Assembly (NCBI GenBank): GCA_023396665.1
Contig: JAEWVL010000071.1
Coordinates: forward strand, 1 to 32,562
Origin: Spirochaetota bacterium
Lineage (GTDB): Bacteria; Spirochaetota; UBA4802; JAFGJZ01
Length of the DNA stretch: 32,562 nucleotides
Reading direction: 5' to 3'
Part shown: positions 2,989 through 30,976 of the stretch, piece after piece
How the letters are laid out: each line of letters begins with the position of its first letter
How positions within the stretch are numbered: the stretch's first letter is position 1
Position numbers and translations under genes: made by a program
Notes under the pieces: generated by a model
What the model saw: only the letters and a program-made list of their open reading frames with translations
Told to the model about the DNA's origin: nothing
Database searches by the model: none

Positions 2989-4274
2989 TGCAGCTCTACG
3001 CGGTATCGGGAAACCCGGTATATCATTCGAAAAGCCCGCTCATCTTCAAACGGCATTTTGCAGCCAAACGAATTGATGCATGCTATCTTCGCTATGCCGC
3101 TGTCGATGCAAATGATATTATCAGTTTTATTCATGACATGCCCTTGTGCGGTATGAATGTCACCGCACCCTTTAAAACAGAGATCTTTTCTCTAATTGAA
3201 AACTGTGATGAATCGGCCGCTTCGATCGGTGCGGTCAACACGCTTGCAAACCGTGAGGGGCGGCTTTACGCGACTTGCACCGATCCCGAAGGTGTTTTGC
3301 GGCCGCTAAGGCGTCGAACACCGCTTGACGGCGCGGAAGCCGTCGTTATCGGTGCCGGCGGTGCCGCCCGTGCCGCTGTGTATGCCCTTGTCTCAGCGGG
3401 ATCCCGGGTGACTGTCGTTAATCGTTCTTTTGAGAAGGCGCACGCGCTTGCTGACGAGTTCGGCGCGCAGGCCGCTCCCTTGAGCGCCGATGCAATCACC
3501 AAACTCTTTGCCGAAAACCGCATTATTGTGCATACCCTGCCGCACGGAGCTTCGCTTCCGGTTCTTCCTCAGCTGCGCAATTCGCATATTATTCTCGACG
3601 CGAACTACCATGACAGCATATACCTTGACGCGGTACGGGATGCCGCCGCGATACTGATTCCCGGAGAAGAATGGCTTTACGAACAGGCCGATGCGGCCTC
3701 GCGCTTCATGGGGGCGATGGCGATCGACGATCCGCACACCTCCGCATATATCAGCGCTCCCCGTGATAACAGGAAAAAGCATATCGCGCTGACGGGCTTT
3801 ATGGGCTGCGGTAAGACGACGATCGGAGAGCGCCTGAGCGCGATTGGGGATTTTCCGCTCTACGATCTTGACACCATGATAGAGCGTGAGGCATCACTGT
3901 CCGTCTCTGAAATATTTGAAAAATTCGGCGAGTCGCATTTTCGCGATCTGGAATCACAGATGCTTGCCCGTGTACTTGATCTGCCCCGCGGTATTGTCTC
4001 CTGCGGCGGGGGGATAATTGAACGTGAGGCAAATCGTGCACTGCTCGACTCAGCGCATACTGTCTGGCTCTACGCCTCAGTTGATGCTTTGTTTCGTCGC
4101 ATATCGGCTTGTGGCGAAGCGCGTCCTCTCGCGCACAATTCTGATGATTTTCAAAAACGTTATGAACGTCGTGTTCCTCTATACGCGGCAAGTTCCGATC
4201 TTGTTATCAGCAGCACCGGCGACGTTGACGCTGTTGCCCGACGGATTTACGCGGAGCTGTATCCCTTTCTCTGA
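2988..4274 (+). CDS. aroE/aroK: Bifunctional shikimate dehydrogenase (N-terminal) / shikimate kinase (C-terminal) fusion
   Basis: 428 aa. The N-terminal part has GNPVYHSKSPLIF, GMNVTAPFK and VIGAGGAARAAVYAL (the AroE Rossmann fold). From about residue 265 comes IALTGFMGCGKTTIGERLS (Walker A) and the rest of a shikimate kinase. The start overlaps the aroD stop by 1 nt (TAATG). Confidence 0.9.
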   Translation: MQLYAVSGNPVYHSKSPLIFKRHFAAKRIDACYLRYAAVDANDIISFIHDMPLCGMNVTAPFKTEIFSLIENCDESAASIGAVNTLANREGRLYATCTDPEGVLRPLRRRTPLDGAEAVVIGAGGAARAAVYALVSAGSRVTVVNRSFEKAHALADEFGAQAAPLSADAITKLFAENRIIVHTLPHGASLPVLPQLRNSHIILDANYHDSIYLDAVRDAAAILIPGEEWLYEQADAASRFMGAMAIDDPHTSAYISAPRDNRKKHIALTGFMGCGKTTIGERLSAIGDFPLYDLDTMIEREASLSVSEIFEKFGESHFRDLESQMLARVLDLPRGIVSCGGGIIEREANRALLDSAHTVWLYASVDALFRRISACGEARPLAHNSDDFQKRYERRVPLYAASSDLVISSTGDVDAVARRIYAELYPFL

Positions 4275-4494
4275 ACGGGGTCTGCGATGATGCCCGCTCC
4301 TGATGTCGGGTAAAAGCGCGGTGGAGAAGGGATCATTACGAAAGTTTATCCCCCCGCATCGCGCTGGACTTCGTTCTCTGAAGTTCTTGACGAATGTGCC
4401 GCTGTTGTGCAGCCTGCGGTGAACGGAAAAGTGAAAAAAGTAAATGACCCGATCATATATCTAATACCAAATGAAACAGTAAGGATGGAACACG

Positions 4495-5556
4495 ATGAGC
4501 CTTGAAAATATCCGTCAGAAAATTGACCTGAAAGACGCGCAGATTCTTGAACTGCTTCACGAGCGTATGGAGCTCTCACTCATGTCGCGCAAGTTTAAAA
4601 CCAGTGTAGAGGATCGCGTTCGCGAAGAAGAGCTGCTCAAAAAGATCAAACTGCATTCCGGTACCCTTCTCGGAAAAGATTTTTGCGAGGGACTGTACCG
4701 GCAGATAATTGCGGAGAGCAAGCGCCTGCAAAAAGGTGATTATCAGGTTATCGGTTTTCAGGGTGAGCATGGCGCTTACTCCGAGATAGCCGCCAATCAC
4801 TGGAACAGCAGCTTTGTTTCATCGGCCTGTCCGGCCTGGACCGATGTTTTCGAAGGGGTGATGAGCGGTATCTACGATTACGGTATTGTGCCGATCGAGA
4901 ACACGCTCGGCGGTGTCGTCGAACAGACGAACGACCTTCTTATCCATTCCGATGTCTCGATTGTCGGGGCCGTCGAGCTGACGATTCATCAGTGTCTTTT
5001 GACGCTTCCGGAGACCGATCATCGTGAGATACGTGTGGTGTATTCTCATCAGCAGGCGCTCGCACAATGCAGAAATTTTCTCGCAAGAAACCGCCTCGAG
5101 GGCGTTCCCTGGTACAATACCGCCGGTGCCGCAAAAATGTTAATGCTTGAAAAACCGAAGGCCGCGGCCGTCATCGCCAGCAAGTTGACCGCCGAGCTTT
5201 ATAATCTTGAAATCATTAAAGAAAATATCGAGGACAACGCGGCCAACCGTACGCGTTTCATTGTCATCGCGAAAAATCCCGAAGATAACGGCGGGGATAA
5301 ATGCTCGATACTGTTCAGTACAGAGAACACGCATAAGGCGGGAGTGCTTTTCAAAGTGCTTGAACTTTTTGCAAACGAAAATATCAGTATGACGAGAATC
5401 GAATCGATACCTGACACTCCGGGTAACTATGTTTTTCAGGTTGATCTTCTCGGTTCCAGAAACGATGAGAATGTTAAACGTGCCCTTGAGCAGATTGAAG
5501 CGCGCACATCAAAAATGCGTTTCATGGGCTGCTACAAGGAGATTGCTGTCGGTTGA
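4495..5556 (+). CDS. pheA: Chorismate mutase / prephenate dehydratase (P-protein) with a C-terminal ACT domain
   Basis: 353 aa. N-terminal AroQ-type chorismate mutase helix (IRQKIDLKDAQILELLHERMELS), a PDT core (GFQGEHGAYSE, NRTRF) and an ACT-like tail. AAGGA RBS lies before the ATG. Confidence 0.9.
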   Translation: MSLENIRQKIDLKDAQILELLHERMELSLMSRKFKTSVEDRVREEELLKKIKLHSGTLLGKDFCEGLYRQIIAESKRLQKGDYQVIGFQGEHGAYSEIAANHWNSSFVSSACPAWTDVFEGVMSGIYDYGIVPIENTLGGVVEQTNDLLIHSDVSIVGAVELTIHQCLLTLPETDHREIRVVYSHQQALAQCRNFLARNRLEGVPWYNTAGAAKMLMLEKPKAAAVIASKLTAELYNLEIIKENIEDNAANRTRFIVIAKNPEDNGGDKCSILFSTENTHKAGVLFKVLELFANENISMTRIESIPDTPGNYVFQVDLLGSRNDENVKRALEQIEARTSKMRFMGCYKEIAVG

Positions 5557-5605
5557 ATAGGCAGCAGTCCTTGCGATCATAAGGCATATATTTCCGGGGT
5601 AGGGG

Positions 5606-6346
5606 ATGAGCGAAAAAAAACCTGAGACCGGCGTGCGCCGCGCCGCAACAAAAAAGACAGCCGGTGTGCGCGGTAAAAAGACCACGCGAAAACCGCCGGT
5701 CAGAAAAGCGGTTCCCGCATCAAACGCATTTGCCGGGGTTTTACTCGCGGGATCTCTCGTCGCCCTTGCGATTCTGGGGCTGACCGTTGTGCGTCAGCAG
5801 CGGGCCATCAACGAATTGCAGCACGCTATTCGAACGGAAGATGCTGTAGTTTCGAAAGGAGACGGGGATTCCGCTGCACGCAAAGAAACTGCGCCGACGA
5901 AGCAGCAATCCGAACAGAAGCCTGAAGTGAAAGAACCGGGCACGGTTGCGGGTGTTCTTTGCATGCTGCATTATGATGAACAGAAAGATCAGGTGTCGTA
6001 TGTTAAGGTGCGGCGAACTCTTGATGAGCCGACGATCGCGGCGGCAATGCTTGAGCTGATCAAGGGCCCCGACGCGAAAGAACGCTCGAAGGGCATTCTC
6101 AGCACCATCCCTTCCGATTTGAAAGTTCGCTCAATCGTCATAAAGGGGGATACCGCCACGATTGACCTTTCCTCTGATTTTCTGCATGAAGCCTTCGGTG
6201 ATATTGCCGTTAACCGGATTAATCAGGTTTTCACGACAGCAACACAGTTCGAATCGGTCAGCTCCGTAATCATACTCGTCGAAGGTCGTGAACTGCATGA
6301 TATTGACGGAAGGGTGATCGACTGGCCCCTGAAGCGGAGACTGTGA
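5606..6346 (+). CDS. Membrane-anchored GerMN-domain protein
   Basis: 246 aa. Basic N-terminus, one TM helix (FAGVLLAGSLVALAILGLTVV), a low-complexity linker, then a GerMN-like LELIKGP...GILSTIPSDLKVRSIVIKGDTATIDLSSDF. A GGGG-rich RBS precedes the ATG. Confidence 0.6.
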   Translation: MSEKKPETGVRRAATKKTAGVRGKKTTRKPPVRKAVPASNAFAGVLLAGSLVALAILGLTVVRQQRAINELQHAIRTEDAVVSKGDGDSAARKETAPTKQQSEQKPEVKEPGTVAGVLCMLHYDEQKDQVSYVKVRRTLDEPTIAAAMLELIKGPDAKERSKGILSTIPSDLKVRSIVIKGDTATIDLSSDFLHEAFGDIAVNRINQVFTTATQFESVSSVIILVEGRELHDIDGRVIDWPLKRRL

Positions 6347-6882
6347 TGCTTGAGATAGAGATTAAGGCCTGGTGTGACGATCCCGCTCGTGTTGAAACGG
6401 CGCTGAACGCTTCGGGCGCAACGCTTGCCGCAAATCTCATTCAAACCGATATGTATTACAATCATCCCTCGCGTGATTTCGGGCAAACCGACGAAGCTTT
6501 CCGCATTCGAACGAGTAATGATGAGACCCTGATTACCTACAAAGGCCCGAAGCTTTCTGATAAATCGAAAGCCCGTTTCGAGAAAGAAACGGCGATCAGC
6601 GATCCCGCCGCTTTTTCTGAAATTCTCGATCGCCTCGGGTTTCGCCGGGCCGGTGTCGTGAGAAAAAATCGTAACGAGTATCTGCTTGGCGATATTCATA
6701 TCTGTGTTGACCGCGTCGAAGGCCTTGGTACCTTTGTAGAATTCGAACAGTGCGGAGATAATCTTGCGTGTATCGAACCGCAGTTGTTTGCCTGTGCGGA
6801 ACGCTTCGGCCTCGACCGTTTTGAGCGGCGCTCGTATCTTACACTGCTTTTGCAAAAAAACAAAACGGAGACGGAACAATGA
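6346..6882 (+). CDS. CYTH-domain protein (class IV adenylate cyclase CyaB / triphosphatase family)
   Basis: N-terminal EIEIK (the CYTH EXEXK signature), then EAFRIR, ITYKGPK and GTFVEFE. The ATG at 6346 overlaps the upstream TGA by 1 nt. The ORF track starts it at the GTG at 6343. Confidence 0.78.
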   Translation: MLEIEIKAWCDDPARVETALNASGATLAANLIQTDMYYNHPSRDFGQTDEAFRIRTSNDETLITYKGPKLSDKSKARFEKETAISDPAAFSEILDRLGFRRAGVVRKNRNEYLLGDIHICVDRVEGLGTFVEFEQCGDNLACIEPQLFACAERFGLDRFERRSYLTLLLQKNKTETEQ

Positions 6883-8156
6883 CGATTATCGAGAAAGCTG
6901 AGCAGGCAAAATCCGTCACCCCCGCTCTTGCAGAGCAGACGAGTGATGAAAAAAACAGGGCTCTCGCCGCCATAGCCGGCAATCTGCAGAAAAACCGCGA
7001 ACGTATAATCGCGGCGAACAAAACAGATCTCGACCGCGCCGAGGCGGATAAACTCGATGCGCCGCTGCTGAAGCGGCTGAAATTCGACGCCGCGAAGATT
7101 GATGCCGTCTGTGCGGGCATTGAAAGCCTCATCGCGCTGCCCGATCCGGTCAACAAAGTCATCTCCCGCACCGAACTTGATAACAATCTTGAACTGTCAA
7201 AAGTTAGCTGCCCGATCGGCGTTATCGGCATCATCTTCGAATCAAGACCGGATGCTTTGGTGCAAATCGCGAGTCTGTGCCTGAAAAGCGGCAATGCCGT
7301 TCTTCTCAAAGGGGGAAGCGAAGCCTCGCATACAAATGCTATTCTTGCTGATTGTATTACCGGAGCCACCGATGAAGCGGGTTATCCAGCGGGATGGCTG
7401 CACCTGCTCGAAAGCCGGTCCGACGTCAACGAGATGCTGAAACTTGATTCGCATATAGATCTGATCATTCCGCGCGGATCGAACAGTTTTGTGCAGTACA
7501 TAATGAACAATTCCAATATTCCTGTCATGGGTCATGCGGACGGAATCTGCCATCTTTTTGTCGACGAAAGCGCCGATTTGAAGATGGCGCTCGAGTTGAC
7601 CTACGATTCGAAAACGCAGTATGTTGCGGTCTGCAACGCCCTTGAAACGCTGCTGGTTCACAAGAATGCGGCGCCATCATTTCTGCCATTACTGAAAGAG
7701 CGTTTCGACGCAAAACGGGTAAGACTCGTCGCTTGCGAGCGTACGCGCGCTATCATTCAGGTTGATGCCGCCACCGAAGAGGACTGGGCGAGCGAATACC
7801 TCGATTACATTCTTTCTGTCAGGATTGTCGATTCTCTCGATGAGGCAATCGCGCATATCAATCATTACGGTTCGGGGCATACCGATTCGATTGTGACCGA
7901 AGATCAGTCAAATGCGGAGCGCTTTATGGCTCGGGTCGATTCGGGCAATGTTTTCTGGAACGTTTCCACGCGTTTTTCAGACGGCTATGTTTACGGGCTT
8001 GGCGCCGAGGTGGGGATAAGCACCGCAAAGATTCACGCCCGCGGACCGGTCGGGCTGGAAGGGCTGGTTATTTACAAGTACCGCCTAAAAGGCAGGGGCG
8101 CAGTAATGGCGCCTTACGCAAGTGGTAATAAAAAATTTACGCACAAAATAATGTGA
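6879..8156 (+). CDS. proA: Glutamate-5-semialdehyde dehydrogenase (gamma-glutamyl phosphate reductase)
   Basis: 425 aa. Full-length ProA-like sequence (IFESRPDALVQIASLCLKSGNAVLLKGG, CNALETLLVH, YGSGHTDSIVT, NVSTRFSDG). ATGA overlap with the CYTH gene. Confidence 0.94.
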   Translation: MTIIEKAEQAKSVTPALAEQTSDEKNRALAAIAGNLQKNRERIIAANKTDLDRAEADKLDAPLLKRLKFDAAKIDAVCAGIESLIALPDPVNKVISRTELDNNLELSKVSCPIGVIGIIFESRPDALVQIASLCLKSGNAVLLKGGSEASHTNAILADCITGATDEAGYPAGWLHLLESRSDVNEMLKLDSHIDLIIPRGSNSFVQYIMNNSNIPVMGHADGICHLFVDESADLKMALELTYDSKTQYVAVCNALETLLVHKNAAPSFLPLLKERFDAKRVRLVACERTRAIIQVDAATEEDWASEYLDYILSVRIVDSLDEAIAHINHYGSGHTDSIVTEDQSNAERFMARVDSGNVFWNVSTRFSDGYVYGLGAEVGISTAKIHARGPVGLEGLVIYKYRLKGRGAVMAPYASGNKKFTHKIM

Positions 8157-8250
8157 ACTTCGCCATGTCATTCGCAAGTGCTGAAATCATCGCTGAATTG
8201 CGGTATCAGACGCTGATGGCGCTTGCATACCGTAACCTGAGCCGTCAACG

Positions 8251-8781
8251 GTGAAACTGCGCCCCAACAATTTCGTTCCCCTGTCGGCCGCCATCGTTGC
8301 ACTGTTTATTCTGCGCGTGCTTGACAATATCGCGGGTACTGCATTGTACCCGCTTTTCGCTTTTCCTTCTTCGAAAGCGGCGGCTCTCTTTTATAAGGCC
8401 TCGCTGTCAATGCAAAACGGTGTGTATTGCATTAGCGACGCTCTTCTCGTATTGCATATCACCAGACAATGTTCGGCTTTTTCTTTTTTTTCCATTCTTT
8501 TTTCTCTTTTGCTGTATGAGTCGTTTCGTTTTGAAAGAAGAAGGAAGTGTATGTCGCTATTGTCCGCACTGCCGCTATCATATGTGTTGACAATTTGTTC
8601 AAATGCTGTTCGCATCATTCTCTGGCGTGCGGTTTATCCGTTTATTGTTGCATTTTTGCCGGCGAAGCTGTTCGCCCTGGCTCATCAGTTTACCGGCATT
8701 ATTGTTTTTCTTCCGCTGTTGTGCGGCGTCTATTATTTTGCTGAAAAGGGGTTACCGGATGAAACAAAAATGGAATCGTAA
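8251..8781 (+). CDS. Minimal exosortase/archaeosortase-family transpeptidase (short Xrt-type)
   Basis: 176 aa with about 5-6 TM helices. The Cys/Arg/His triad occurs in the expected order: C74 in TRQCSAF (8470-8472), R121 in SNAVRII (8611-8613), H145 in LAHQFTG (8683-8685). The next gene carries a PEP-CTERM signal. The start codon (GTG) is uncertain. Confidence 0.65.
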   Translation: MKLRPNNFVPLSAAIVALFILRVLDNIAGTALYPLFAFPSSKAAALFYKASLSMQNGVYCISDALLVLHITRQCSAFSFFSILFSLLLYESFRFERRRKCMSLLSALPLSYVLTICSNAVRIILWRAVYPFIVAFLPAKLFALAHQFTGIIVFLPLLCGVYYFAEKGLPDETKMES

Positions 8782-11689
8782 TGTTGATCTGCCGCAAGCC
8801 GCGGCGCATCCCCTTGTTTGGCTGCTCGTCAGCGCTCTTCCTGCCGTAATACTTCTGTTCGTAAATGGCAGCATGTTCCCGCTTATTGAATCGGCTCTTG
8901 ACAAGAAGGGAAAAATCTTATTGGCTGTTTATTTCGTTCTGATAGCGCTGCAATTTTTTTATGCCTGTATAACGGGGGCTGCAGCGCTAATCAGAAAAAA
9001 ACGGATACACTTGCTTTTCGTAGTGCCCTCGTTTCTGTTAGTGCTGGCTTACCTGATCGTTTTTATATATCATATCGATAAAATCTGTTTGCCCTGGCAG
9101 CATTCATGGGTAGTCAACATGCAGGCGCTGCTGTACTTTCAGTTTGTGTTCCTGCTGCCGGTGATATTTTACGCACTCGTTCGCTTTGCCGTTTTCCCCC
9201 TCCCTTTGCGTTTTAAACATGATGTAATCGCCTCGGCTCTGTCCGTATTCATTTTTCCCTTATGCTGGTATCTCGGTTTCAAAATTATCGTTTCCGTCAG
9301 TGTTTTCAGAATTTCCGCGCTTGTTTCTTTAATCTTTGTCTTTATCTCTCTTGCAATGACCTTGTTGCTTTTTCTCATACTCATCCGTCTTCTCCTGTTC
9401 GTAACGACACGCCTTGGCAATCCCCCCCTTCCTCTTAAAATTTCAGTCGCATGTCTTGTCGGGCTTTTGCTTCCGATCGGGGGGCTCGTTCTGAACCGTT
9501 ATATCCCTTTTCCGGCAAATCTTCAGCGTTACTCGATTTACATCTGGACGGTCGTGAACGGTCTGCTTCTCGTCGCTCCCGAATGTAAAAACAAGGGGCT
9601 TAATACACTTTTGTATTATCTCAGAGTCGCATCCTATCCCTTTGTTCTGTATTTCTTCGTACTCTTTCTTCCTTTCCTGCCGCTTTCCATTCCCGCTCTT
9701 GTATTTTTCGGCGGCGGATTTCTGATTTTGACACCGACAATACTTTTTTTCCTTTATACCAAAAGGCTGCTTGGTGAATACAGGCAGCGGCAGTCCTTTC
9801 GGAAAAAAGCGGCAAGTTTCGGCTCATTCGTATCCATACCCCTGATAATTGCCGTTCTGGCACTTGGTGATCGCATTATCATCAATCATGCGCTTGATCA
9901 TGCCTTCACGCCATCCTATGCTGACGCCAAACAGTTTTCTGCGCCGCCAAGCCTTATTCGTCATGCCCTTTCCCATCAGTTCGATTTGCAAAACGATCGC
10001 GAAATTCCCTTTATATCTGCTTTTTACAATAAAATTGTGTATGACAATTTGGTATTGAGTACATCAAAGCGTGTTTTTCTCGAGAAGCTTTATCAGGGAG
10101 AAATCAGTGAAGAAAAATCACTGCTTCCGGGTGACGTATTTTTTGAGGAGGCCAATATTTTTACCCGTTCAAGATTTCCGTCCGAAGGCCCCAAAAGACC
10201 GTTTCAGATGTCGACCGATGTGCTTATAAGCGCAATGAGCCATTCGCTGCAAACATCGAAAGAATTGCATTCGGTGACGATCCGGCTTCATATTGAGAAC
10301 AGGGGAGAGCGGTCTGTCGATGAATTCCGCACACTCATCAAAATACCCGTCCATGCTGCGTTAACAGCATTCTCGCTGAAAATAGACGGCGTTGACGTTC
10401 CCGGCCGGATATTTGAAAAGAAGACGGCTCTTTTTGTCTATGATTCAATCGTATCGACAAAACGTGACCCTGCCATCGTCTATCATCTTTCGCCCGATAC
10501 CTTGGCACTTCGTGTTTTTCCCGTATCGGATAAAGAACCGAGAGAATGTACATTGACACTGACCTTTCCCGTACACTGCGGTGTCGATACGACAGTTGAG
10601 ATCGGCGCTAAGCAGCTTACAATCGCACATGACGATTCCATAGTTCCTGTGAAATTCGCAATGGGTGAAAGATCCTTTACGATTATTCCACCGGGAATCT
10701 GCAGTCCGCTTGAAACTCCGATTCGCCGTCCCTGTGTCTATTTCGTCATTGACCGTTCAATTCACGGTCCCGATAACTACCTCTCCTTGATTCGCAGTGC
10801 TTCAAAACGTCTGCCTGAGGGGCTGCAGTATCGTTACTTTTGTGCAAATTATAATACTTATCAGCTTTCGAATATGCAGAACAATGCTGACGCTACTTCT
10901 GAACAGTCAGTGCGTCTCCCCCGAAAAAGGGGCGGTTTTAATGCGGAAGCCGCCTTGCGCCGTATTGTCAATGTCTCGCTCGATGCAGATCAGCGTGGTA
11001 CTTATCCCTTGATTGTTTTTGTAACATCCGATGAGAGCGAGCCGCTTTTTGCGACTCCCGAATTGTCCGCCTACTTCGAAGACCTTATTCCGGAAGGTCT
11101 TCAGGTGTATCGGGTCAGCGATACGAAATTCGAGAGTCTCGATCTCGCTCCGGGACACTATAGGCCCGCCGCTGCAGTTGTTCCGGCTCTGACGGTTGAA
11201 GATTCTGATGATGCGGATACAAGGGCTCAAGCCCGGATACAGGTGCTGATGCCCTATAATGACAATCGTGCGTATAGGATTTCACAACGTGCCCCGCTTG
11301 TGTTGTACAAAGATCCTGATACGTCCTTACTCAAAGATGCCGGTGTTTTCAGCGTTGCAGCGGACGGGGCCTATTTCGAGGCCATGCTTGCAAAGGAAGA
11401 GCATTTTAACTGGCTGAATACACACAGGGAATCATACAAAAAATCACTGCTCAAACGATCGAAAGAACTGGGCTATCTCACTCCTCTGACTGCGTTTATC
11501 GTTGTCGAGGATGCCATTCAATGGAAGGCTCTCGAAGAGAAGGAGAAGCAGATTTCAAAATCGCATGACGCGCTGGATCACAGCGACACACCAGAACCCG
11601 GATCGCTGTTATTGCTTCTCTTTGCTGTTTGTGTTTTTATCGGTGAAACGATACGCAGGCAAAAAAAACGAAAAGGGCACAAGCGGTGA
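8759..11689 (+). CDS. Polytopic membrane protein with VIT-like and vWA-like domains and a C-terminal PEP-CTERM sorting signal (putative dedicated exosortase substrate)
   Basis: The probable ATG at 8759 (MKQKWNRN) lies within the 1028-aa ORF. About 12 TM helices span the first ~440 aa. A VIT-like segment lies at roughly 10271-10575 (EKKTALFVYDSIV). A vWA-like strand VYFVIDRSIHG lies at 10751-10765. The C-terminus reads DTPEPGSLLLLLFAVCVFIGETIRRQKKRKGHKR (PEP at 11591-11599). Confidence 0.75.
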   Translation: MKQKWNRNVDLPQAAAHPLVWLLVSALPAVILLFVNGSMFPLIESALDKKGKILLAVYFVLIALQFFYACITGAAALIRKKRIHLLFVVPSFLLVLAYLIVFIYHIDKICLPWQHSWVVNMQALLYFQFVFLLPVIFYALVRFAVFPLPLRFKHDVIASALSVFIFPLCWYLGFKIIVSVSVFRISALVSLIFVFISLAMTLLLFLILIRLLLFVTTRLGNPPLPLKISVACLVGLLLPIGGLVLNRYIPFPANLQRYSIYIWTVVNGLLLVAPECKNKGLNTLLYYLRVASYPFVLYFFVLFLPFLPLSIPALVFFGGGFLILTPTILFFLYTKRLLGEYRQRQSFRKKAASFGSFVSIPLIIAVLALGDRIIINHALDHAFTPSYADAKQFSAPPSLIRHALSHQFDLQNDREIPFISAFYNKIVYDNLVLSTSKRVFLEKLYQGEISEEKSLLPGDVFFEEANIFTRSRFPSEGPKRPFQMSTDVLISAMSHSLQTSKELHSVTIRLHIENRGERSVDEFRTLIKIPVHAALTAFSLKIDGVDVPGRIFEKKTALFVYDSIVSTKRDPAIVYHLSPDTLALRVFPVSDKEPRECTLTLTFPVHCGVDTTVEIGAKQLTIAHDDSIVPVKFAMGERSFTIIPPGICSPLETPIRRPCVYFVIDRSIHGPDNYLSLIRSASKRLPEGLQYRYFCANYNTYQLSNMQNNADATSEQSVRLPRKRGGFNAEAALRRIVNVSLDADQRGTYPLIVFVTSDESEPLFATPELSAYFEDLIPEGLQVYRVSDTKFESLDLAPGHYRPAAAVVPALTVEDSDDADTRAQARIQVLMPYNDNRAYRISQRAPLVLYKDPDTSLLKDAGVFSVAADGAYFEAMLAKEEHFNWLNTHRESYKKSLLKRSKELGYLTPLTAFIVVEDAIQWKALEEKEKQISKSHDALDHSDTPEPGSLLLLLFAVCVFIGETIRRQKKRKGHKR

Positions 11690-12498
11690 TTGACTTTTCA
11701 CTAAGTCCGCTTACAGAGGGGGATCTTCCCTTGCTGGCTCACTTGCAGCCGGCCGATTGGTCTGACATCACAGCAATGCACCGCTTTTATCTTTCATCTC
11801 AATTCGCCCATCCCTATAAAGTTATCGTCGGGGGCAACATCGCCGGTATCGGCAGTGCCCTCATTCTCTCGGGTACGGCCTGGCTTGCTCATATCATCGT
11901 CGCCGAAGAGTTCCGTAACAGGGGGATAGGCGCTTTCATAAGCGCATCGCTCAGAGATATCGCCCTTGAAAAGTTCAACTGTAAAACAGTGTCGTTGATT
12001 GCATCCGATATGGGGCTTCCCGTGTATAAAAAACAGGGCTTTGTTGTACAGGGAGAGTACAATGTATACACTACAAGCGCCGGACAGCCGCACTTCCCCC
12101 CGAGTGAGCATGTCATTCCCGCAGATGAGGAGCATCTGTCCGGAATACTGTCTCTTGACAGGATGATTTCCGGTGAAGATCGTCAGGCCGTGATTCGGCA
12201 GCACCTGGACGGTGCATATGTTTATGAAGAATCCGGCAGACTGACAGGAGCCTATCTGACAAATCTCGGAGAGGGCTTGATTATCGCTAATGACAAAACA
12301 TCGGGTATCGAACTTCTGAAACGCAAGGTGTCCGAATGCGACAGGCTTACTCTTCCAGCGGAAAATACTGATGCCGGGTGTTTTCTGCGCGAGGCCGGTT
12401 TTACCAAATTGCGAAGTGTCACTCGAATGTTTTATGGTGACGCGTTTCAATGGGAGCCCCGGTCTCTATTCAGCAGGTTGGGCGGCTATCTTGGGTAA
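11686..12498 (+). CDS. GNAT-family N-acetyltransferase with a C-terminal extension
   Basis: 270 aa. Acetyl-CoA motif A in IIVAEEFRNRGIGAFISASL. The GTG start overlaps the upstream stop (GTGA). Confidence 0.72.
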   Translation: MIDFSLSPLTEGDLPLLAHLQPADWSDITAMHRFYLSSQFAHPYKVIVGGNIAGIGSALILSGTAWLAHIIVAEEFRNRGIGAFISASLRDIALEKFNCKTVSLIASDMGLPVYKKQGFVVQGEYNVYTTSAGQPHFPPSEHVIPADEEHLSGILSLDRMISGEDRQAVIRQHLDGAYVYEESGRLTGAYLTNLGEGLIIANDKTSGIELLKRKVSECDRLTLPAENTDAGCFLREAGFTKLRSVTRMFYGDAFQWEPRSLFSRLGGYLG

Positions 12499-14468: not shown

Positions 14469-14852
14469 TCATTTATGCAATTTGATAATCATCTGTACTG
14501 TGATATATCCGGCGAGTACCATGCCCAGTCCCAGCAAGTTGCTGGCAAGAAGGTTCAGTAGTGCCAGGCGAATTTCCCTTCCTTTCAGCAGATGAAAACT
14601 CTCGAGGCAAAATGTAGAAAAGGTGGTAAAGCCCCCCAGAAAACCGGTAAAGATGAACAATCGCAATTCCGGCGAAATAATCCACCTTTCAAAAAAAGCG
14701 GAAAGCAGACCGATCAGAAAACAACCCGTCAGATTGACCGCCAGTGTCCCGAAGGGAAAAAAATCCGGGCTTAGTGAGCAAACCCCCCTGGAAAGAAGGT
14801 AGCGCGCCAGACCGCCGGTACCGCTTCCGATAAGAATGCAGAGATATTTCAT
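14469..14852 (-). CDS. crcB: Fluoride ion channel CrcB/FluC
   Basis: 127 aa starting at MKYLCILIGSGTGGLARYL, with FPFGTLAVNLTGCFLIG and GFLGGFTTFSTF. This is the C-terminal part of the 296-aa ORF. A GGTGGTG RBS lies 8 nt upstream of the ATG (14850-14852). Confidence 0.9.
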   Translation of the reverse strand: MKYLCILIGSGTGGLARYLLSRGVCSLSPDFFPFGTLAVNLTGCFLIGLLSAFFERWIISPELRLFIFTGFLGGFTTFSTFCLESFHLLKGREIRLALLNLLASNLLGLGMVLAGYITVQMIIKLHK

Positions 14853-15015
14853 AATCACACCACCGGCATAAAATGTCGGAGCGTCAGCTCCTTGCTGCAT
14901 CACTGTTGAGTGCTGATCTGATTTTGTCCATAATTTCACGCAAAAAATGCAGATTACAGCTGTCTTTCGGTTTTCAGGATATGAGATTTCGCCGGTTTTA
15001 GGTAAAAATGTCTTA

Positions 15016-15549
15016 TTAATAGAAGAGAATCGCGAGATCAAGAATGACTGCGTCGAGCAGTTCCTTAATCTCCTCGTCATCGGGAAATGAGCGGGAAAGC
15101 TCCAGGCATTTCGTATACGCGATGAATATATCGCCGGTTTCACGATAAAGATTGATGATGTTGATGCGCGCTTCGATGAGATCGGGCTCGTATTCGAGTG
15201 CTTTGCGATACAGTTCGAGAGCTTCTTCAAGAAGATCTTTTTCCCAGCAGATAGAGGCTTTGTTCGCCAGAGTGACAGAATCATCGGGGTAGGCTTCGAG
15301 CGCACGGTCGATAATGTATTCGGCGTCTTCGATGTTTCCCATTTCAAAAAGGCAGACACCGAGACCGTTCATTGCTTCAGCCGATTCATTGTCGTATGAA
15401 AGAAGGGTGAGGAACATCTGCGCCGCGCCAACCCAGGCCTCATTGTCCATATTCTCATAGGCAAGGTCAAACAGATGGTCTATTTCTTTTTCAAGGTCTG
15501 AGATCCCGTTAATCACAAGAAGCTCATCAAGTCGTTTCTTTTGGATCAT
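15016..15549 (-). CDS. Tetratricopeptide (TPR) repeat protein
   Basis: 177 aa, acidic, with three to four TPR-like units (AAQMFLTLLSYDNESAEAMNGLGVCLFEMGNIEDAEYIIDRALEAYPD, LEEALELYRKALEYEPD). Confidence 0.8.
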   Translation of the reverse strand: MIQKKRLDELLVINGISDLEKEIDHLFDLAYENMDNEAWVGAAQMFLTLLSYDNESAEAMNGLGVCLFEMGNIEDAEYIIDRALEAYPDDSVTLANKASICWEKDLLEEALELYRKALEYEPDLIEARINIINLYRETGDIFIAYTKCLELSRSFPDDEEIKELLDAVILDLAILFY

Positions 15550-25202: not shown

Positions 25203-25907
25203 ATGCTTTTAACATTTGAAAAACTGCCGTCTGAAAAACAAAATTCGATTCTTGAAGCCGCTGCAAGTGTATTCGCTGAGGAAGGCTTTCATTACGCGCG
25301 CATATCAAAAATATGCGAAAAGGCTTCGATTTCAAACGGTGCATTATATAAATATTTTACCGGTAAAGAGACTCTTTTTGTCGCTGTCATAGAATATGCG
25401 GCGGATCTTGTGAAAAAACATCTGTATCAGAAATTCTTTTCCGGGGAAAGACACCTTTTTGACTCACTCGCTCATCTTCTTGAGGAGATGGTTCTGTTCA
25501 ATAACGGAAACAATAATTACATATCGATCTATTCTGATCTCGGATCATCTTCGATGAACCGCTTTGCGCGAATCGCATCATCCAAATTCAAAAACGCAAC
25601 CAGTCAGTACACTATTCGCATGGTTGAGAGCGCAATTTCGAAGGGAGAAATACGGGCCGACATGTCGAGCGACAAAGCCGCATGCCTTATCGACAGCTAT
25701 ATCACGCTATTCTCCTTTACCCTTGTAAGTGAATACCACAGCAACCGTTTTGATTCTTTTTTTACCGGTAGTGACAACTCGCTTACAGAGCAGCAGAGAA
25801 TCAGGCTGGTCATTGATTCACTCAAAGAAGCACTGGCAAAATCTTCTTCGTGCGGAGAGCGACTGATCGCTTTCCGGGATACTAATTCATGTGAAGAGGC
25901 GATCTGA
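25203..25907 (+). CDS. TetR/AcrR-family transcriptional regulator
   Basis: 234 aa. N-terminal HTH: ILEAAASVFAEEGFHYARISKICEKASISNGALYKYFTGKETLF. Confidence 0.85.
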   Translation: MLLTFEKLPSEKQNSILEAAASVFAEEGFHYARISKICEKASISNGALYKYFTGKETLFVAVIEYAADLVKKHLYQKFFSGERHLFDSLAHLLEEMVLFNNGNNNYISIYSDLGSSSMNRFARIASSKFKNATSQYTIRMVESAISKGEIRADMSSDKAACLIDSYITLFSFTLVSEYHSNRFDSFFTGSDNSLTEQQRIRLVIDSLKEALAKSSSCGERLIAFRDTNSCEEAI

Positions 25908-26651
25908 ATGAAAATACTCGAGTTCATACACGATGAAGATCATCCAGAGACAAGCAATATGGACGCATGGGTTGAATCCAGGTTTTTTCATCTTACACAA
26001 AAGATCCGCGTGTACCGGAACGGACTGTCTTTTGTCGGTGAAGATTATGACATGATAATTCTGTACGGGGGGGCCCAGCATCTGTGGGATGAGAACAGGG
26101 AGGCCTGGCTTTCTGAGGAGATAGATTTTGTCAGAGATGCGATTTTTAATAAGAGAAAAGCAGTTATCGGCTTTTGTCTGGGCAGTCAGATTATCGCTGA
26201 GGCTCTCGGAGCGAAGGTTTACAAAATGGAGAAAGGCGAAATCGGGTGGTTCGGTATTAATGTAAAACATGATCACCCCCTGGTTCGGGATCTTGGAGAT
26301 CGTTTCGAAAGTTTTTTGTGGCATACTGATCATTATGATCTTCCCGGAGGATGTGTCTCCCTGGCGTCGACCGGACTGGCAGAGCATCAGATATATGCCA
26401 GTGAAGAGTATCCGGTTTGTGCGTATCAATTTCATCCGGAATATACGAAAACAATTATACAACATTATTTTGAAACCGGTTTTGATGAATACTGGGCTAA
26501 TGAAGCGTTTAATTCAAGTAAAGACGATTTCTCCGCAGATCTTGCGATCCGCCCGCAGACCTACGGGCTGTTTTCAAGACTGATGGACAATGCAATGGAA
26601 TATTTAGCGGCTAAATACAAAATATCAAATGAAAGTGAGGTACAGTTATGA
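25908..26651 (+). CDS. Class I (triad) glutamine amidotransferase-like protein, possibly a gamma-glutamyl-amide hydrolase
   Basis: 247 aa. Nucleophile elbow GFCLGSQ and a His-Glu pair in YQFHPEY. Starts immediately after the TetR stop. Its stop overlaps the next ATG (ATGA). Confidence 0.78.
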   Translation: MKILEFIHDEDHPETSNMDAWVESRFFHLTQKIRVYRNGLSFVGEDYDMIILYGGAQHLWDENREAWLSEEIDFVRDAIFNKRKAVIGFCLGSQIIAEALGAKVYKMEKGEIGWFGINVKHDHPLVRDLGDRFESFLWHTDHYDLPGGCVSLASTGLAEHQIYASEEYPVCAYQFHPEYTKTIIQHYFETGFDEYWANEAFNSSKDDFSADLAIRPQTYGLFSRLMDNAMEYLAAKYKISNESEVQL

Positions 26652-28039
26652 CATCAGCAGGTTTGTCAACGGCACCCAAAGAGGCGTTATCCGGTTACCG
26701 TAAGATGACGCAGGAAGATGTGAAAAACATAATTCGCGAGAAGGGTATCGAAATGATACGTCTGGAATATGTTGATATGAACGGAATTAACAGGGGCAAA
26801 TTATTGCCGGCCAAAATGCTTGATGAAGCTCTGGATGGCGGAATCGCCTTCGCGGCGGCAATTATGGCAATAAGCTATGATAACAATGTCGCCCAGGTAA
26901 AAGGGCTCAGTGAGTACAATTATGATGACATGAAAGTTGTCGCCGATCCCTCAACCTTTGTCGTGTTACCCTATCTGGAAAAAACAGCGCTGTTGCTCGG
27001 CGATCTGCATTATCATCACAAGCCGATGCTGCAATCGCCGCGCTGGTTTCTCAAAAAGATGATAGAGCAGTACAATGATCTTGGCGTAAATCCGATTACC
27101 GCGAGTGAACTCGAGTTCTTTCTGTTCAACAAGACCTCTGAAGGCGGATTCGTTCCCTATACAAGCAAAAATTGCAACTGCTATACCAGCAACACCCGTA
27201 TAGATCCCAAGGGATTTCTCAACAAACTGACGAGAATATTCACCGAAATGGATTTCAAGGTTCTGTACATGAACCATGAATTTTATCCGGGACAGTATGA
27301 ATATAACTGGATGCATGGTCCGGCCCTGAGAAATGCGGATGAAACTTCTATGTTCAAGGGAATATGCAAGGATGTGGCTGATATCAATGACATGCTGGCT
27401 ACGTTCATGGCCAAACCGCTCAATGGAGGCGGTGGAAGCGGATGTCACTTTCATGTATCTATGTCTGATCTCGAAAGCGGAGAGAATGTGTTTTACGATC
27501 CCGCAGACGATAACGGGATGTCCGGGATGATGAAGTACTTTGTCGGCGGTGTCCTCAAACATGCGAAATCTCTGGTCGCCTTTTTGTCCCCGACTATCAA
27601 CTGTTACCGCCGTTACCGTCCTGATTCTTTTGCACCCTATTATATCGGTTGGGGTTACGACAACCGCACAACATACATACGCATTCCCGATGAGCGGCAT
27701 GCGGCGACACGGGTCGAAGTGCGCGCGGCGAGTGCGGCGACAAATCCTTATCTGGCGCTTGGCGGAATTCTGGCCGCAGGTCTCGATGGTATTAAAAATA
27801 AAATTACACCGTCGGAAATAGTCACAACAGATCTGTATCATGACGAGGGAAAACAGCGGGAAACGGTTCCGAGAAGTCTGTTCCGGTCTCTATCTGAGCT
27901 TGAGAAGGATGAGTGGATGTGCGAAATGGCAGGACAGGATCTGATAAACAATTTCGTCGCCCTGAAAAATCTCGAAGTTGAGGGATTCAACACGAGTGTG
28001 ACAGACTGGGAATGGAATACCTATTCGTATCATGTCTGA
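26648..28039 (+). CDS. Glutamine synthetase family ligase (type I fold; glnA-like or gamma-glutamyl-amine synthetase such as GmaS/PuuA)
   Basis: 463 aa. Contains SELEFFLF, NHEFYPGQYEYN, GGGSGCHFHVS, NCYRRYRP and RVEVRAASAATNPYLA, the GS catalytic motifs. Confidence 0.88.
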   Translation: MTSAGLSTAPKEALSGYRKMTQEDVKNIIREKGIEMIRLEYVDMNGINRGKLLPAKMLDEALDGGIAFAAAIMAISYDNNVAQVKGLSEYNYDDMKVVADPSTFVVLPYLEKTALLLGDLHYHHKPMLQSPRWFLKKMIEQYNDLGVNPITASELEFFLFNKTSEGGFVPYTSKNCNCYTSNTRIDPKGFLNKLTRIFTEMDFKVLYMNHEFYPGQYEYNWMHGPALRNADETSMFKGICKDVADINDMLATFMAKPLNGGGGSGCHFHVSMSDLESGENVFYDPADDNGMSGMMKYFVGGVLKHAKSLVAFLSPTINCYRRYRPDSFAPYYIGWGYDNRTTYIRIPDERHAATRVEVRAASAATNPYLALGGILAAGLDGIKNKITPSEIVTTDLYHDEGKQRETVPRSLFRSLSELEKDEWMCEMAGQDLINNFVALKNLEVEGFNTSVTDWEWNTYSYHV

Positions 28040-28071
28040 AAAGAATTAGATCCAATGCACAGGAGGAAAAC

Positions 28072-28968
28072 ATGTGCGGTATAGCCGGTATTATTAATAA
28101 AGAGGGAATGGATGTTTCCACCAAACTGGTGGATATGCTGAAACTCATTCAGCATCGGGGTCCCGATGCGACGGGTATAGCGGTTTACGGAGCCGGTGAA
28201 TCAATTACAATGCGTGTCGCGATTACAGACAAGGACAGGCATATTGAACTGATGAACATAGTGGCCGAGTACGCGAGAATCGCCGGAGAAAGCACATCAG
28301 ACTGGAGACGCAATATTGTATTCGCTGATTTTGTTCTCGAAATGGAGCAGACCGATATCCCCCGTTTGCATGAGCGGATCAACAGTGTTGACGGCCTTTG
28401 TGTACACTACGTCGGCAGAGGGATGCGCTTATTCAAGGATGCTGGTTCGACAACAGAGCTGGTTGAAAAGCATCGTATCGGATCCATTACCGCGACTCAT
28501 GGAATGGGTCACGTGCGTATGGCAACGGAAAGCGCTGAAGACATCAACGCTGCGCATCCCTTTGTTTCTCCGTTTTATCCTGAACTGAGTGTTGTGCACA
28601 ACGGACAGTTTACAAACTATTTCAATTTGCGAAGATCGCTTGAGCGCAGAGGTGCTATCTTTAAAACACTAAACGATTCTGAAGCGGCAAGTCATCTGAT
28701 AGCCTGGGCAATGAAAGAAAACGGCGGAGATCTGAAGGCTGCTCTCCTGTACGCACTTGAGGAGATGGACGGTATTTTCTGCATCATCGCTGCGACATCA
28801 AAGCAAATGGGATTCGTGAAAGACAGAATGGGAATAAAACCCTTTCTGCTATTTGAAAAAGACAACATGACGTTTTTCGGATCGGAGCAAATCGAATTTA
28901 CCACAGTCTTTCCGGATGTATACGCCGAAGAGATGGAACCGGGAGAGGTGCGGGTATGGAATATATAG
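28072..28968 (+). CDS. Class II (Ntn) glutamine amidotransferase, glutamate synthase domain-1-like (MgsA-like)
   Basis: The ATG at 28072 after an AGGAGG RBS gives MCGIAGI (catalytic Cys1). HGMGHVRMAT and VVHNGQFTNY motifs are present. Confidence 0.85.
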   Translation: MCGIAGIINKEGMDVSTKLVDMLKLIQHRGPDATGIAVYGAGESITMRVAITDKDRHIELMNIVAEYARIAGESTSDWRRNIVFADFVLEMEQTDIPRLHERINSVDGLCVHYVGRGMRLFKDAGSTTELVEKHRIGSITATHGMGHVRMATESAEDINAAHPFVSPFYPELSVVHNGQFTNYFNLRRSLERRGAIFKTLNDSEAASHLIAWAMKENGGDLKAALLYALEEMDGIFCIIAATSKQMGFVKDRMGIKPFLLFEKDNMTFFGSEQIEFTTVFPDVYAEEMEPGEVRVWNI

Positions 28969-29675
28969 ATGCCGCTAACATGAAAAGCGGAGAACTTAAT
29001 CCGATCATTACTAAAATTCTGGATTGGGACTCTGAGGTGCACATCAAAAACCCTCATTCTATGCACAATATCGCGATCGGAATCAGGAAGAAGGGCCGGA
29101 TTGTCATTGATGGAAGTACGGGCTTTTATACCGGCGGTTTTCTTGAAGGAGCCACTGTTGTTGTCGAGGGAAACACCGGATGGTATGCGGGTGACAACAT
29201 GATGGATGGTGAGCTGATAATTAAAAAGAATGCGGGATGCAATGCTGGCGCCTATTTCTACGGAGGAACCATGGTTATTCGCGGAGGCACAGGGAGCCGG
29301 GTGGGATACGGCATGAAAGGTGGAACCATAATAGTGTGCGGTTCAGCCGGCAGGTGGGCCGGGCAGATGACACTGGGTGGAAAACTTGTCATTCTGGGTG
29401 ATCCCGGGAAACAGCTGGGCGAGTCGATGTACCGGGGGGCGATATTCGTGCGCGATGATGAAGTTGAATCCAGACTGGGGGGCAATGTGTTTGTTGATTC
29501 TCCGACAGCGCAGGAGATCAGCGAACTGAACGCGATGTTCACGTTGTACGATATTGATGCAGACGGTGCCCGGCTTCGTGCTGTGCGCCCCATGACAACG
29601 GGTCGGCACAATTATGTGCTGTTTAAGCCGGAACTGCGTCCTGAACTTTCAAACAGGAATGGTCTGACATTATGA
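28956..29675 (+). CDS. GXGXG-motif protein, glutamate synthase C-terminal-domain-like (MgsB-like)
   Basis: 239 aa of repeated beta-helix G-x-G motifs (VVVEGNTGWYAGDNMMDGELIIKKNAGCNAG, GGTMVIRGGTGSRVGYGMKGGTIIVCGSAG). Overlaps the upstream gene by 13 nt. Confidence 0.85.
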   Translation: MEYIDAANMKSGELNPIITKILDWDSEVHIKNPHSMHNIAIGIRKKGRIVIDGSTGFYTGGFLEGATVVVEGNTGWYAGDNMMDGELIIKKNAGCNAGAYFYGGTMVIRGGTGSRVGYGMKGGTIIVCGSAGRWAGQMTLGGKLVILGDPGKQLGESMYRGAIFVRDDEVESRLGGNVFVDSPTAQEISELNAMFTLYDIDADGARLRAVRPMTTGRHNYVLFKPELRPELSNRNGLTL

Positions 29676-30976
29676 AAGATAACGAGATAAGAGAAAAAGA
29701 ATTCTCTCCGAAAGACGAGCAGCGCGGAGTTTGGAACCAGCAAACCGTTTCGGAGATAGAATACAAGGCCCGCTACGGCAAACACCGTATTCGCGGGTGC
29801 GGTGCAACGCGTTATATGCCGAATTTCGACGATCTGATGGTTCTTCCCTCACAGTTGACGCGTATGTCAATAGATACCTACCGCGAACCCTGTGAGACCA
29901 GAACCGTTCTGGGCAAGCGTTTTGCGACAAAGCCATTGGTAATTGAAACTCCGATCATGATCGCCGGTATGTCCTATGGGGCGCTCAGCAAAGAATCAAA
30001 AATTGCACTGGCGAAAGCGACAGCGTTGACAGGGACGGTAATCAGTAACGGCGAGGGCGGACTTCTGCCCGAAGAAAGAGAGCACTCCTATCGTCAGTCT
30101 GTGCAGATTCTTCCCAGCCGTTTCGGTTTCAGCCGCAGAAGCATGGATGTGGCTGACATGCTGGAATTTCTTGTCGGTATCGGGGCCAAGCCCGGACTGT
30201 CGGGGCATCTGATGGGCGAGAAAATCACAGAGGAGATTGCCGCTTTCAGGCAGTTGCCCGTGGGAATAGATCTGCACAGTCATCCCCGTCATGGTGACGC
30301 CTTCGGTGCCGATGACATGGTCGTTAAGATGGAGCAGATCCGTGAACTGACGAAGGGTGAGATTCCCATTTTCGCGAAAATCGCCGCGGGCAGAGTAAGG
30401 GACGATGTGAAGATAGCCGTGAAGGTTGGTGCTGACGGCATCATCATCGATGGCGCTCAGGGGGGGACCGGAGCGGCTCCGGTGATGGCGACCGATCATC
30501 TCGGTATTCCGGCGATGCCCGCTCTTGTGCAGGCCGTGGCGACGCTTGAAGAGATGGGACTGAAGGATGATGTCAGCATCATCATATCCGGCGGTATAAA
30601 AGACGGAGCCGACATGGCCAAAGCCCTTGCTCTCGGAGCCGACGCGGTTGCAATCGGTACCGGTGCGATGATCGCAATGGGCTGCAGAGTCTGTCTTCGC
30701 TGTCACAGCGGAAACTGTGCATTCGGCATAGGCACTCAGCGTGAGGATCTGCGCGTGAAACTCGACATAGAAGAAGCCGCACAACGTGTTGCGAACTATA
30801 TCACCGCGATGACGAACGAAGCAATACTGCTGGCCAAGGCGGCGGGAAAGACTAAACTGAAAAATCTTGAACGAGAGGATCTAAGGTCGATGACACTGGA
30901 AAGCTGCGCGATGACCGGTATACCTCTGGTCGGAAGTGATTTTGTTTTTGGAAAACGATTCGGGTTCGGAGCGTGA
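29672..30976 (+). CDS. FMN-dependent glutamate synthase domain-2-like subunit (MgsC-like)
   Basis: 434 aa. Contains IAGMSYGALS, GEGG, KPGLSGHL, IIIDGAQGGTGAAP and ISGGIKDGADMAKALALGADAV, plus the Cys cluster CRVCLRCHSGNC. ATGA overlap upstream. Confidence 0.9.
   Translation: MKDNEIREKEFSPKDEQRGVWNQQTVSEIEYKARYGKHRIRGCGATRYMPNFDDLMVLPSQLTRMSIDTYREPCETRTVLGKRFATKPLVIETPIMIAGMSYGALSKESKIALAKATALTGTVISNGEGGLLPEEREHSYRQSVQILPSRFGFSRRSMDVADMLEFLVGIGAKPGLSGHLMGEKITEEIAAFRQLPVGIDLHSHPRHGDAFGADDMVVKMEQIRELTKGEIPIFAKIAAGRVRDDVKIAVKVGADGIIIDGAQGGTGAAPVMATDHLGIPAMPALVQAVATLEEMGLKDDVSIIISGGIKDGADMAKALALGADAVAIGTGAMIAMGCRVCLRCHSGNCAFGIGTQREDLRVKLDIEEAAQRVANYITAMTNEAILLAKAAGKTKLKNLEREDLRSMTLESCAMTGIPLVGSDFVFGKRFGFGA

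Follow-up and report, generated by a model that had tools for sequence, protein, structure and literature searches.

A probable one-enzyme/one-substrate protein-sorting cassette of the XrtK/MSEP-CTERM type in an uncultured Spirochaetota bacterium

Results

Organization of the locus

Contig JAEWVL010000071.1 (assembly GCA_023396665.1) of an uncultured Spirochaetota bacterium, which we analysed over its whole length of 32,562 nucleotides and refer to as the window, carries a pair of overlapping genes that probably form a dedicated protein-sorting cassette (Table 1). The first gene encodes an exosortase-like membrane protein of 176 amino acids (aa) and the second a 976-aa protein with a C-terminal sorting signal. 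An earlier note on this DNA, made from the sequence alone, had placed Cys74, Arg121 and His145 of the small protein in the motifs TRQCSAF, SNAVRII and LAHQFTG, had let the next gene start at ATG 8759 with an overlap of 23 nucleotides (nt), and had described a tail of PEP, about 18 hydrophobic residues and RRQKKRKGHKR. All three observations agree with the sequence, the full motif of the tail being TPEP.

Table 1. Coordinates of the two genes and of the features within them, numbered along the window.
Feature	Position	Strand	Basis and remarks
xrtK-like gene (176-aa minimal exosortase)	8251..8781	+	GTG start; TIGR04287, TIGR04178, AlphaFold model
Cys74 codon, putative catalytic nucleophile	8470..8472	+	Motif TRQCSAF; invariant 60/60; outer end of helix 77-94
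Arg121 codon	8611..8613	+	Motif NAVRII; invariant column; invariant Asn118 just upstream
His145 codon	8683..8685	+	Motif LAHQFTG; invariant column; invariant Gly149 just downstream
AAGGGG Shine-Dalgarno-like run in the xrtK 3' end	8746..8751	+	Sequence; 7 nt before ATG 8759; function inferred
Overlap of xrtK-like and target genes, 23 nt	8759..8781	+	Frame positions
Gene for 976-aa MSEP-CTERM family protein	8759..11689	+	TIGR04286, 366 bits
N-terminal polytopic membrane domain (aa 1-383), about 11 helices	8759..9907	+	AlphaFold helices, loop charges
Best-conserved membrane-domain stretch (aa 294-331), PFVLYFFVLFLPFLPLS...GGGFLILTPTILF, Pro/Gly-rich	9638..9751	+	Homologue alignment
VIT domain (aa 497-600)	10247..10558	+	Pfam PF08487, 38.1 bits, cutoff 26.5
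vWA-like alpha/beta domain (about aa 655-800)	10721..11158	+	Model secondary structure, Foldseek
Tripartite sorting signal (aa 944-976): TPEP, 18-residue hydrophobic helix, RRQKKRKGHKR	11588..11686	+	Homologue alignment

A minimal exosortase with an invariant Cys/Arg/His set

The reading frame of the small gene is closed upstream by an in-frame TAA at positions 8233-8235, and the GTG at 8251 is therefore the first possible canonical start. On inspection of the sequence, no Shine-Dalgarno-like site comparable to the AAGGGG of the target gene was seen upstream of this GTG. Among the NCBIfam subfamily models the protein matched TIGR04287 (exosortase K) best, with 52.0 bits (E 5e-14; curated cutoff 55 bits) and with residues 13-166 aligned to positions 8-157 of the 163-position profile, and it passed the exosortase/archaeosortase signature TIGR04178 with 32.3 bits (cutoff 23). 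The EpsH/XrtA models gave no match at E <= 1. A phmmer search of 1.84 billion cluster representatives returned 146 relatives at E <= 1e-3, nearly all of them 140-200 aa long, with a top identity of 42%. We aligned 60 of these relatives, and our statements on invariant columns of the small protein refer to this alignment. TIGR04287 is matched by all 60 (best E 1e-40), and C74, N118, R121, H145 and G149 occupy invariant columns. The exosortase-like Cys/Arg/His set, which the earlier note had proposed from order and spacing, is thereby borne out by aligned columns as well as by the TIGR04178 match.

The invariant columns also bear on the idea that the small protein is a non-catalytic pseudo-sortase or a chaperone, which would bind the C-terminal helix of its partner in a stable complex without cleaving it. 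In favour of this idea, the score stays under the XrtK cutoff, the lineage is very divergent, and a word-indexed search of 5.8 billion proteins matched the small protein to itself only. However, a pseudo-enzyme would be expected to lose exactly those five residues that are invariant in the 60 representatives, and we regard this explanation as extremely improbable.

The AlphaFold model of the small protein, calculated with the 60-sequence alignment as input, is confident (pLDDT 93, pTM 0.88) and consists of helices 5-47, 77-94, 99-135 and 138-166, with residues 51-70 forming a short beta hairpin. The cytoplasmic side is marked by the ERRR(K) loop (residues 95-99); by the positive-inside rule, Cys74, Arg121 and His145 are therefore predicted to lie on the side of the periplasmic leaflet of the inner membrane. 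A PDB search with the XrtK profile gave no sequence match and a Foldseek search with the XrtK model nothing better than E 0.65, so that no solved exosortase fold is detectable. The profile matches and the model support an assignment of the small protein as an XrtK-type minimal exosortase, which would be a four-helix membrane cysteine protease or transpeptidase.

A full-length MSEP-CTERM family protein with an ITIH-like ectodomain

The mechanically generated list of open reading frames (ORFs) places the start of the large gene at ATG 8603. We adopted ATG 8759 instead, because this start agrees with the database gene call (976 aa), with the points at which homologues begin and with the TIGR04286 alignment, in which residue 16 falls on profile position 4. 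The protein matches TIGR04286 (MSEP-CTERM) with 366.2 bits (E 3e-109, cutoff 150), and the alignment covers its full length, pairing residues 16-969 with positions 4-916 of 920. Identity reaches 45% and 35% with the two closest relatives and stays under 30% with all others; the window protein thus sits on a deep and sparsely sampled branch of the MSEP-CTERM family.

In the AlphaFold model of the large protein (pLDDT 75, pTM 0.75), eleven helices between aa 18 and 383 are followed by a beta-sandwich VIT domain, an alpha/beta vWA-like domain, a helical C-terminal region and a terminal helix at 950-975. Lys/Arg-rich loops at aa 79-84, about 333-350 and 965-976 all lie on one side, as expected from the positive-inside rule, and therefore the N-terminus and the basic tail are placed inside and the ectodomain with TPEP outside. 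We infer that TPEP lies at the outer interface of the membrane, opposite the predicted active site of XrtK.

VIT is the only Pfam domain above cutoff in the large protein, and a PDB profile search returned only VIT domains of inter-alpha-inhibitor heavy chains (ITIH), including that of ITIH4. The likeness extends further at the level of structure: in a Foldseek search the ectodomain of about 560 aa matched ITIH1 (6FPY; E 8e-9), and the match covered about 595 of the 600 residues of the target. The position of the metal-ion-dependent adhesion site (MIDAS, DxSxS) in the vWA-like domain is occupied by DRSIH and is thus degenerate. The membrane domain (aa 1-383) belongs to no Pfam family and has no PDB match; the structure search of the large protein, in which this domain by itself was not searched, gave no match to it either. 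Within the domain, aa 294-331 contain 11 columns that are invariant among 19 homologues (Y298, F299, F303, P305, P308, G318, G320, L322, L324, P326 and L329), a pattern that suggests a role beyond anchoring. This intramembrane stretch tops the conservation of the whole MSEP-CTERM family.

Variation of the C-terminal sorting signal

The protein ends in ...DHSD-TPEP-GSLLLLLFAVCVFIGETI-RRQKKRKGHKR, with TPEP encoded at 11588-11599, and this tail aligns with the MSEP or [ST]P[EA]P signals of homologues. A literal Met-Ser-Glu-Pro is not present in the window protein, which reads D-T-P-E-P-G instead and keeps the Pro-x-Pro core and its position. Among the 80 genome loci with MSEP-family genes described below, literal R-M-S-E-P (or MTEP) occurs in Bacteroidota loci only. 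The Myxococcales tail carries MDEP, and the remaining non-Bacteroidota loci follow the pattern [STAN]-P-[EA]-P; many members of the PVC group have [ST]PAP and the closest relative of the window protein has TPSP. Judging from these tails, the constant of the family is a P-x-P that abuts the helix, with the Met-Ser and the Glu of "MSEP" being dispensable.

The tail of the window protein is a borderline case of the canonical PEP-CTERM signal that the earlier note had seen in it. Its tripartite build stands; as to its canonical status, the generic model TIGR02595 (cutoff 16) gave 12.4 bits with the whole protein and 17.5 bits with the 48-aa tail alone, and PF07589 gave 17.7 bits with the large protein against a cutoff of 20.7. 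Canonical VPEP tails, scoring 20-23 bits with TIGR02595, were found in three loci without an xrtK gene within 4 kb (L007, L011, L046), which suggests that a general exosortase serves these proteins. Their MSEP-family genes lie at about 3650-6960 of the respective loci. A rule by which loss of xrtK pairs with a canonical VPEP tail was considered and did not come out cleanly, as L021 combines an adjacent xrtK with the most canonical tail of all (27 bits with TIGR02595).

Co-conservation of the pair

The 80 loci were collected by a search with the MSEP-family alignment and scanned with hidden Markov models built from both alignments. An XrtK-type ORF is present in 73 of them. In 68 loci this ORF is the immediate upstream neighbour on the same strand, mostly overlapping or within tens of nt; in four it is found 0.9-3.3 kb upstream and in one downstream of a disrupted target gene. 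The co-conservation of the pair that the earlier note had anticipated is thus found. No XrtK-type ORF was detected in seven loci. L041 and L082, two of these seven, are cut by contig ends, and in two others (L037, L063) the target gene runs off the contig before its 3' end, which leaves their tails unreadable. In an all-against-all clustering of neighbouring ORFs no further family occurred in more than 10 loci; there is no third conserved gene, and the cassette therefore consists of two genes. Since the AAGGGG run precedes the start of the target gene within the 3' end of xrtK, it may act in its translation, and the 23-nt overlap likely allows translational coupling of sortase and substrate.

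The loci span Verrucomicrobiota (including Opitutaceae, Chthoniobacterales and Methylacidiphilum), Lentisphaerota/Victivallales, Kiritimatiellae, Omnitrophota, Phycisphaerae and Bacteroidota, and also include one Leptospirales and one Myxococcales metagenome-assembled genome. The earlier note had given the XrtK/MSEP-CTERM pair as one of Bacteroidota, a restriction that does not hold: the family is frequent in Verrucomicrobiota, Lentisphaerota, Kiritimatiellae and Omnitrophota.

In the closest relative, represented by L001-L003 (45% identity of the large protein), the two genes overlap by the identical 23 nt, and in a Kiritimatiellae relative by 8 nt. The closest relative also shares several upstream neighbours with the window, namely genes for EPSP synthase, chorismate mutase/prephenate dehydratase, Germane, CYTH and ProA. 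Its xrtK frame contains no ATG, GTG or TTG between the upstream TAG stop and the catalytic Cys codon, and the start candidates are CTG or ATT only, just after a Shine-Dalgarno-like run (GGGGGGAAG). That this gene is annotated as a 70-aa stub results from the missing canonical start codon; we rejected a true truncation in favour of a gene-calling effect, the DNA of the three contigs being identical at xrtK (L001:5480-6030 = L002:1-528 = L003:290-838). The closest relative may use a non-canonical start, and its sortase would then be weakly expressed compared with the substrate. The MSEP-family gene of the relative with 35% identity (L086:4514-7861) is broken up into three consecutive ORFs, which encode 683, 103 and 150 aa; the third ends in SPEP, helix and basic tail, and a 164-aa xrtK overlaps the first by 8 nt. 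The split reflects either a decaying gene or assembly errors.

These data allow us to weigh the view that the window encodes an ordinary many-substrate system such as XrtA/EpsH, with a link to exopolysaccharide (EPS) production, to which the 976-aa protein would be merely an adjacent substrate. Such a view would account for the isolated tail passing the generic PEP-CTERM cutoff and for the VPEP tails in the three loci without a nearby xrtK. It fits poorly with the enzyme, for which XrtK is the best model and the EpsH/XrtA models give none, and whose 176 aa are far below larger exosortases such as XrtN with its 406-position model, and with the adjacency of the pair in 68 of 80 loci across phyla. 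Besides, the window, which is the entire 32.6-kb contig and delimits our counts of sortases and tails, contains no EPS or glycosyltransferase genes, and just one of its 84 ORFs of at least 80 aa has a P-x-P/helix/basic tail and one is exosortase-like. Overall, we judge a many-substrate system to be very unlikely here.

Other genes in the window

The pair is surrounded by shikimate-pathway genes, proA, a GNAT acetyltransferase gene and others. The GNAT gene (11686-12498) shares 4 nt (GTGA), stop codon included, with the MSEP-family gene. Neither the closest relative nor other loci have a GNAT gene behind the cassette, and it therefore probably stands outside the system. Scans of the window for promoters and terminators gave matches at or under shuffle expectation, and an Rfam scan gave no match, including no fluoride riboswitch at the gathering threshold. 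At 14469-15359 on the minus strand, the CrcB (fluoride channel) domain is confined to residues 173-285 of a 296-aa ORF, and the real crcB gene is therefore probably shorter. Further downstream, positions 25203-30976 comprise a TetR gene and, behind it, five closely spaced ORFs for a class-I glutamine amidotransferase, a glutamine-synthetase-like ligase, a class-II amidotransferase domain, a GXGXG domain and a glutamate-synthase FMN domain. None of these ORFs reached an NCBIfam equivalog cutoff; by its domain content the set resembles split glutamate-synthase or gamma-glutamyl-amine pathways.

Discussion

Both family assignments, the invariant Cys/Arg/His residues, the adjacency of the pair across phyla, the tripartite tail and the ITIH-like ectodomain are established by our data, and with good confidence we interpret the two genes as a protein-sorting cassette of the XrtK/MSEP-CTERM type, in which one enzyme serves one substrate. 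The layout corresponds to that of the catalogued system (TIGR04287/TIGR04286), where the sortase likewise lies directly upstream. The enzyme is of the same size class (176 aa here, 163 positions in the XrtK model) and has the same invariant Cys/Arg/His, and the substrate has the same full-length architecture of polytopic N-terminal domain, VIT domain, vWA-like domain and tripartite tail. Differences from the curated system are the score of the sortase (52 bits, 3 under the cutoff) and TPEP in place of MSEP. The window itself also points to a host that is probably outside Bacteroidota, through the use of a Shine-Dalgarno-like site and through ProA, whose named matches belong to Spirochaetota and Bacillota (about 66%). 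The pair is thus a divergent member of a system that NCBIfam already catalogues, and the pairing itself is known. Judging by the scores, the NCBI pipeline would presumably name the large protein an MSEP-CTERM protein and the small one a generic exosortase-family protein.

Several related systems help to delimit this assignment. The XrtN system (TIGR04476), likewise a dedicated exosortase with a single VIT-domain target (TIGR04477), had been suggested by the earlier note side by side with XrtK/MSEP-CTERM. The likeness to the latter holds, with 366 bits for TIGR04286 and TIGR04287 as the best sortase model, whereas XrtN is excluded: the small protein scores 12.6 bits against a cutoff of 200 and is far shorter than the 406-position model, and the large protein scores 38.4 bits against 250, a weak cross-match due to VIT. 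XrtA/EpsH systems (TIGR02602, TIGR03109, TIGR02595) belong to the same superfamily (TIGR04178) and follow the same logic of a P-E-P that abuts a helix; in contrast, they combine an eight-helix enzyme with many substrates and EPS loci, whereas the window shows four helices, one neighbouring substrate and no EPS genes. The "dedicated systems" conceived by Haft, who also described the Cys/Arg/His triad of exosortases (10.1101/2023.06.07.544157), have a single target per genome that is co-operonic with its enzyme. The pair is co-operonic and conserved in its adjacency, and the window, as far as it reaches, contains one tail and one sortase.

A tentative order of events can be proposed for the cassette. 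The substrate is predicted to combine an 11-helix membrane domain (N-terminus inside), a periplasmic ectodomain of about 560 aa and a TPEP-helix-basic tail that re-enters the membrane. By analogy to ArtA and to sortases, XrtK would recognize the P-x-P (here P-E-P) motif at its junction with the C-terminal helix and would cleave at this junction via an acyl-enzyme on Cys74, the helix and the basic tail being discarded. The new C-terminus would then either be released by hydrolysis or be moved to an amine or hydroxyl acceptor, such as a lipid head group or a glycan, and the ectodomain would remain tethered through its N-terminal membrane domain.

The closest experimental reference is ArtA of Haloferax volcanii, an archaeal member of the homologous enzyme family and the only member with an experimental mechanism. 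In this enzyme Cys173, Arg214 and Arg253 are essential (PMC9263693), and cleavage at the C-terminus is coupled to the attachment of a lipid (PMC9263693, PMC7157517). ArtA differs from the present case in its PGF-CTERM motif, in its many signal-peptide substrates and in its third critical residue, an Arg instead of a His. A small bacterial exosortase with phenotype data is XrtF of Flavobacterium johnsoniae, mutants of which show defects in the colonisation of surfaces and in the formation of biofilms (PMC10936215). It is a Bacteroidota exosortase without classical PEP-CTERM substrates and belongs to a different subfamily with a different partner protein. XrtF was the only bacterial small-exosortase system with phenotype data that we found, and the XrtF paper contains no data on XrtK.

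Some observations weigh against our interpretation. With respect to the enzyme, the curated TIGR04287 cutoff is missed by 3 bits, a Pfam scan of the small protein gave no match, and the Arg in third position of ArtA makes the role of His145 a putative one (PMC9263693). With respect to the signal, the Glu of P-E-P is not conserved across the family. With respect to the system, a second exosortase or more PEP-CTERM proteins are possible beyond the 32.6-kb contig, and classical "sorting" is not needed by a substrate whose 11-helix anchor stays in place once the tail has been cleaved off. In addition, our literature search found no paper mentioning MSEP-CTERM or exosortase K, the matches for "XrtK" being unrelated strings. 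This fits the statement of the earlier note that the function has never been determined experimentally: for no XrtK/MSEP-CTERM pair is a cleavage, an acceptor or a phenotype reported, and every catalytic step above is therefore proposed by analogy.

The retained anchor leads directly to a variant in which XrtK is an endoprotease only, which would clip off the C-terminal helix and thereby release or activate the ectodomain, either as maturation or as quality control. An ectodomain held by eleven helices needs no re-anchoring, no gene for the synthesis of an acceptor is conserved beside the pair, and one-step transpeptidation is, according to Haft, unproven even for ArtA (10.1101/2023.06.07.544157). 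On the other hand, the Cys/Arg/His set mirrors that of transpeptidating sortases, and ArtA-dependent cleavage is coupled to lipid attachment and is blocked when the presumed lipid acceptor pathway is missing (PMC7157517). We consider the protease-only variant possible, if on the unlikely side; it is a sub-variant of the dedicated cassette, and the present evidence discriminates neither way.

If the XrtK/MSEP-CTERM cassette does transfer the new C-terminus to an acceptor, the ectodomain offers one parallel. In ITIH heavy chains a C-terminal propeptide is removed, and the Asp at the newly formed C-terminus becomes ester-linked to chondroitin sulfate. The likeness of the window protein to ITIH1 extends over the whole ectodomain, from VIT and vWA to the C-terminal region. 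Nevertheless, ITIH proteins are eukaryotic and soluble and have neither a membrane domain nor an exosortase, the identity is about 12% and the MIDAS of the window protein is degenerate; the functional parallel is hence speculative. In its strongest form, MSEP-CTERM proteins would be bacterial counterparts of ITIH heavy chains, and XrtK would transfer the C-terminus of the VIT-vWA region to a glycan or lipid acceptor and so produce a covalent cross-link between protein and envelope. This idea is drawn by analogy and we hold it to be rather improbable. In such a scheme, binding or delivery of the acceptor may fall to the conserved 11-helix domain and its Pro/Gly-rich motif, and the cassette, if the idea were true, would be the simplest model for the acceptor chemistry of bacterial exosortases.

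The nearest relatives of both window proteins (42% for the sortase, 45% for the substrate) all come from metagenome contigs. Cultured strains of Flavobacterium, Hymenobacter, Aequorivita and Opitutaceae carry the same cassette, among them Hymenobacter crusticola, Aequorivita viscosa, Opitutaceae bacterium EW11 and strain IMCC26134. Since the host of the window is itself uncultured, the window gives no special experimental access. To our knowledge, there is no bacterial exosortase with a demonstrated cleavage site or acceptor, and cassettes in which one enzyme faces one substrate, such as XrtK/MSEP-CTERM, are the cleanest setting in which to find them. To this family the window copy adds a range well beyond Bacteroidota, a sorting signal in which Met-Ser and Glu are dispensable, and an ectodomain that is ITIH-like over its whole length.

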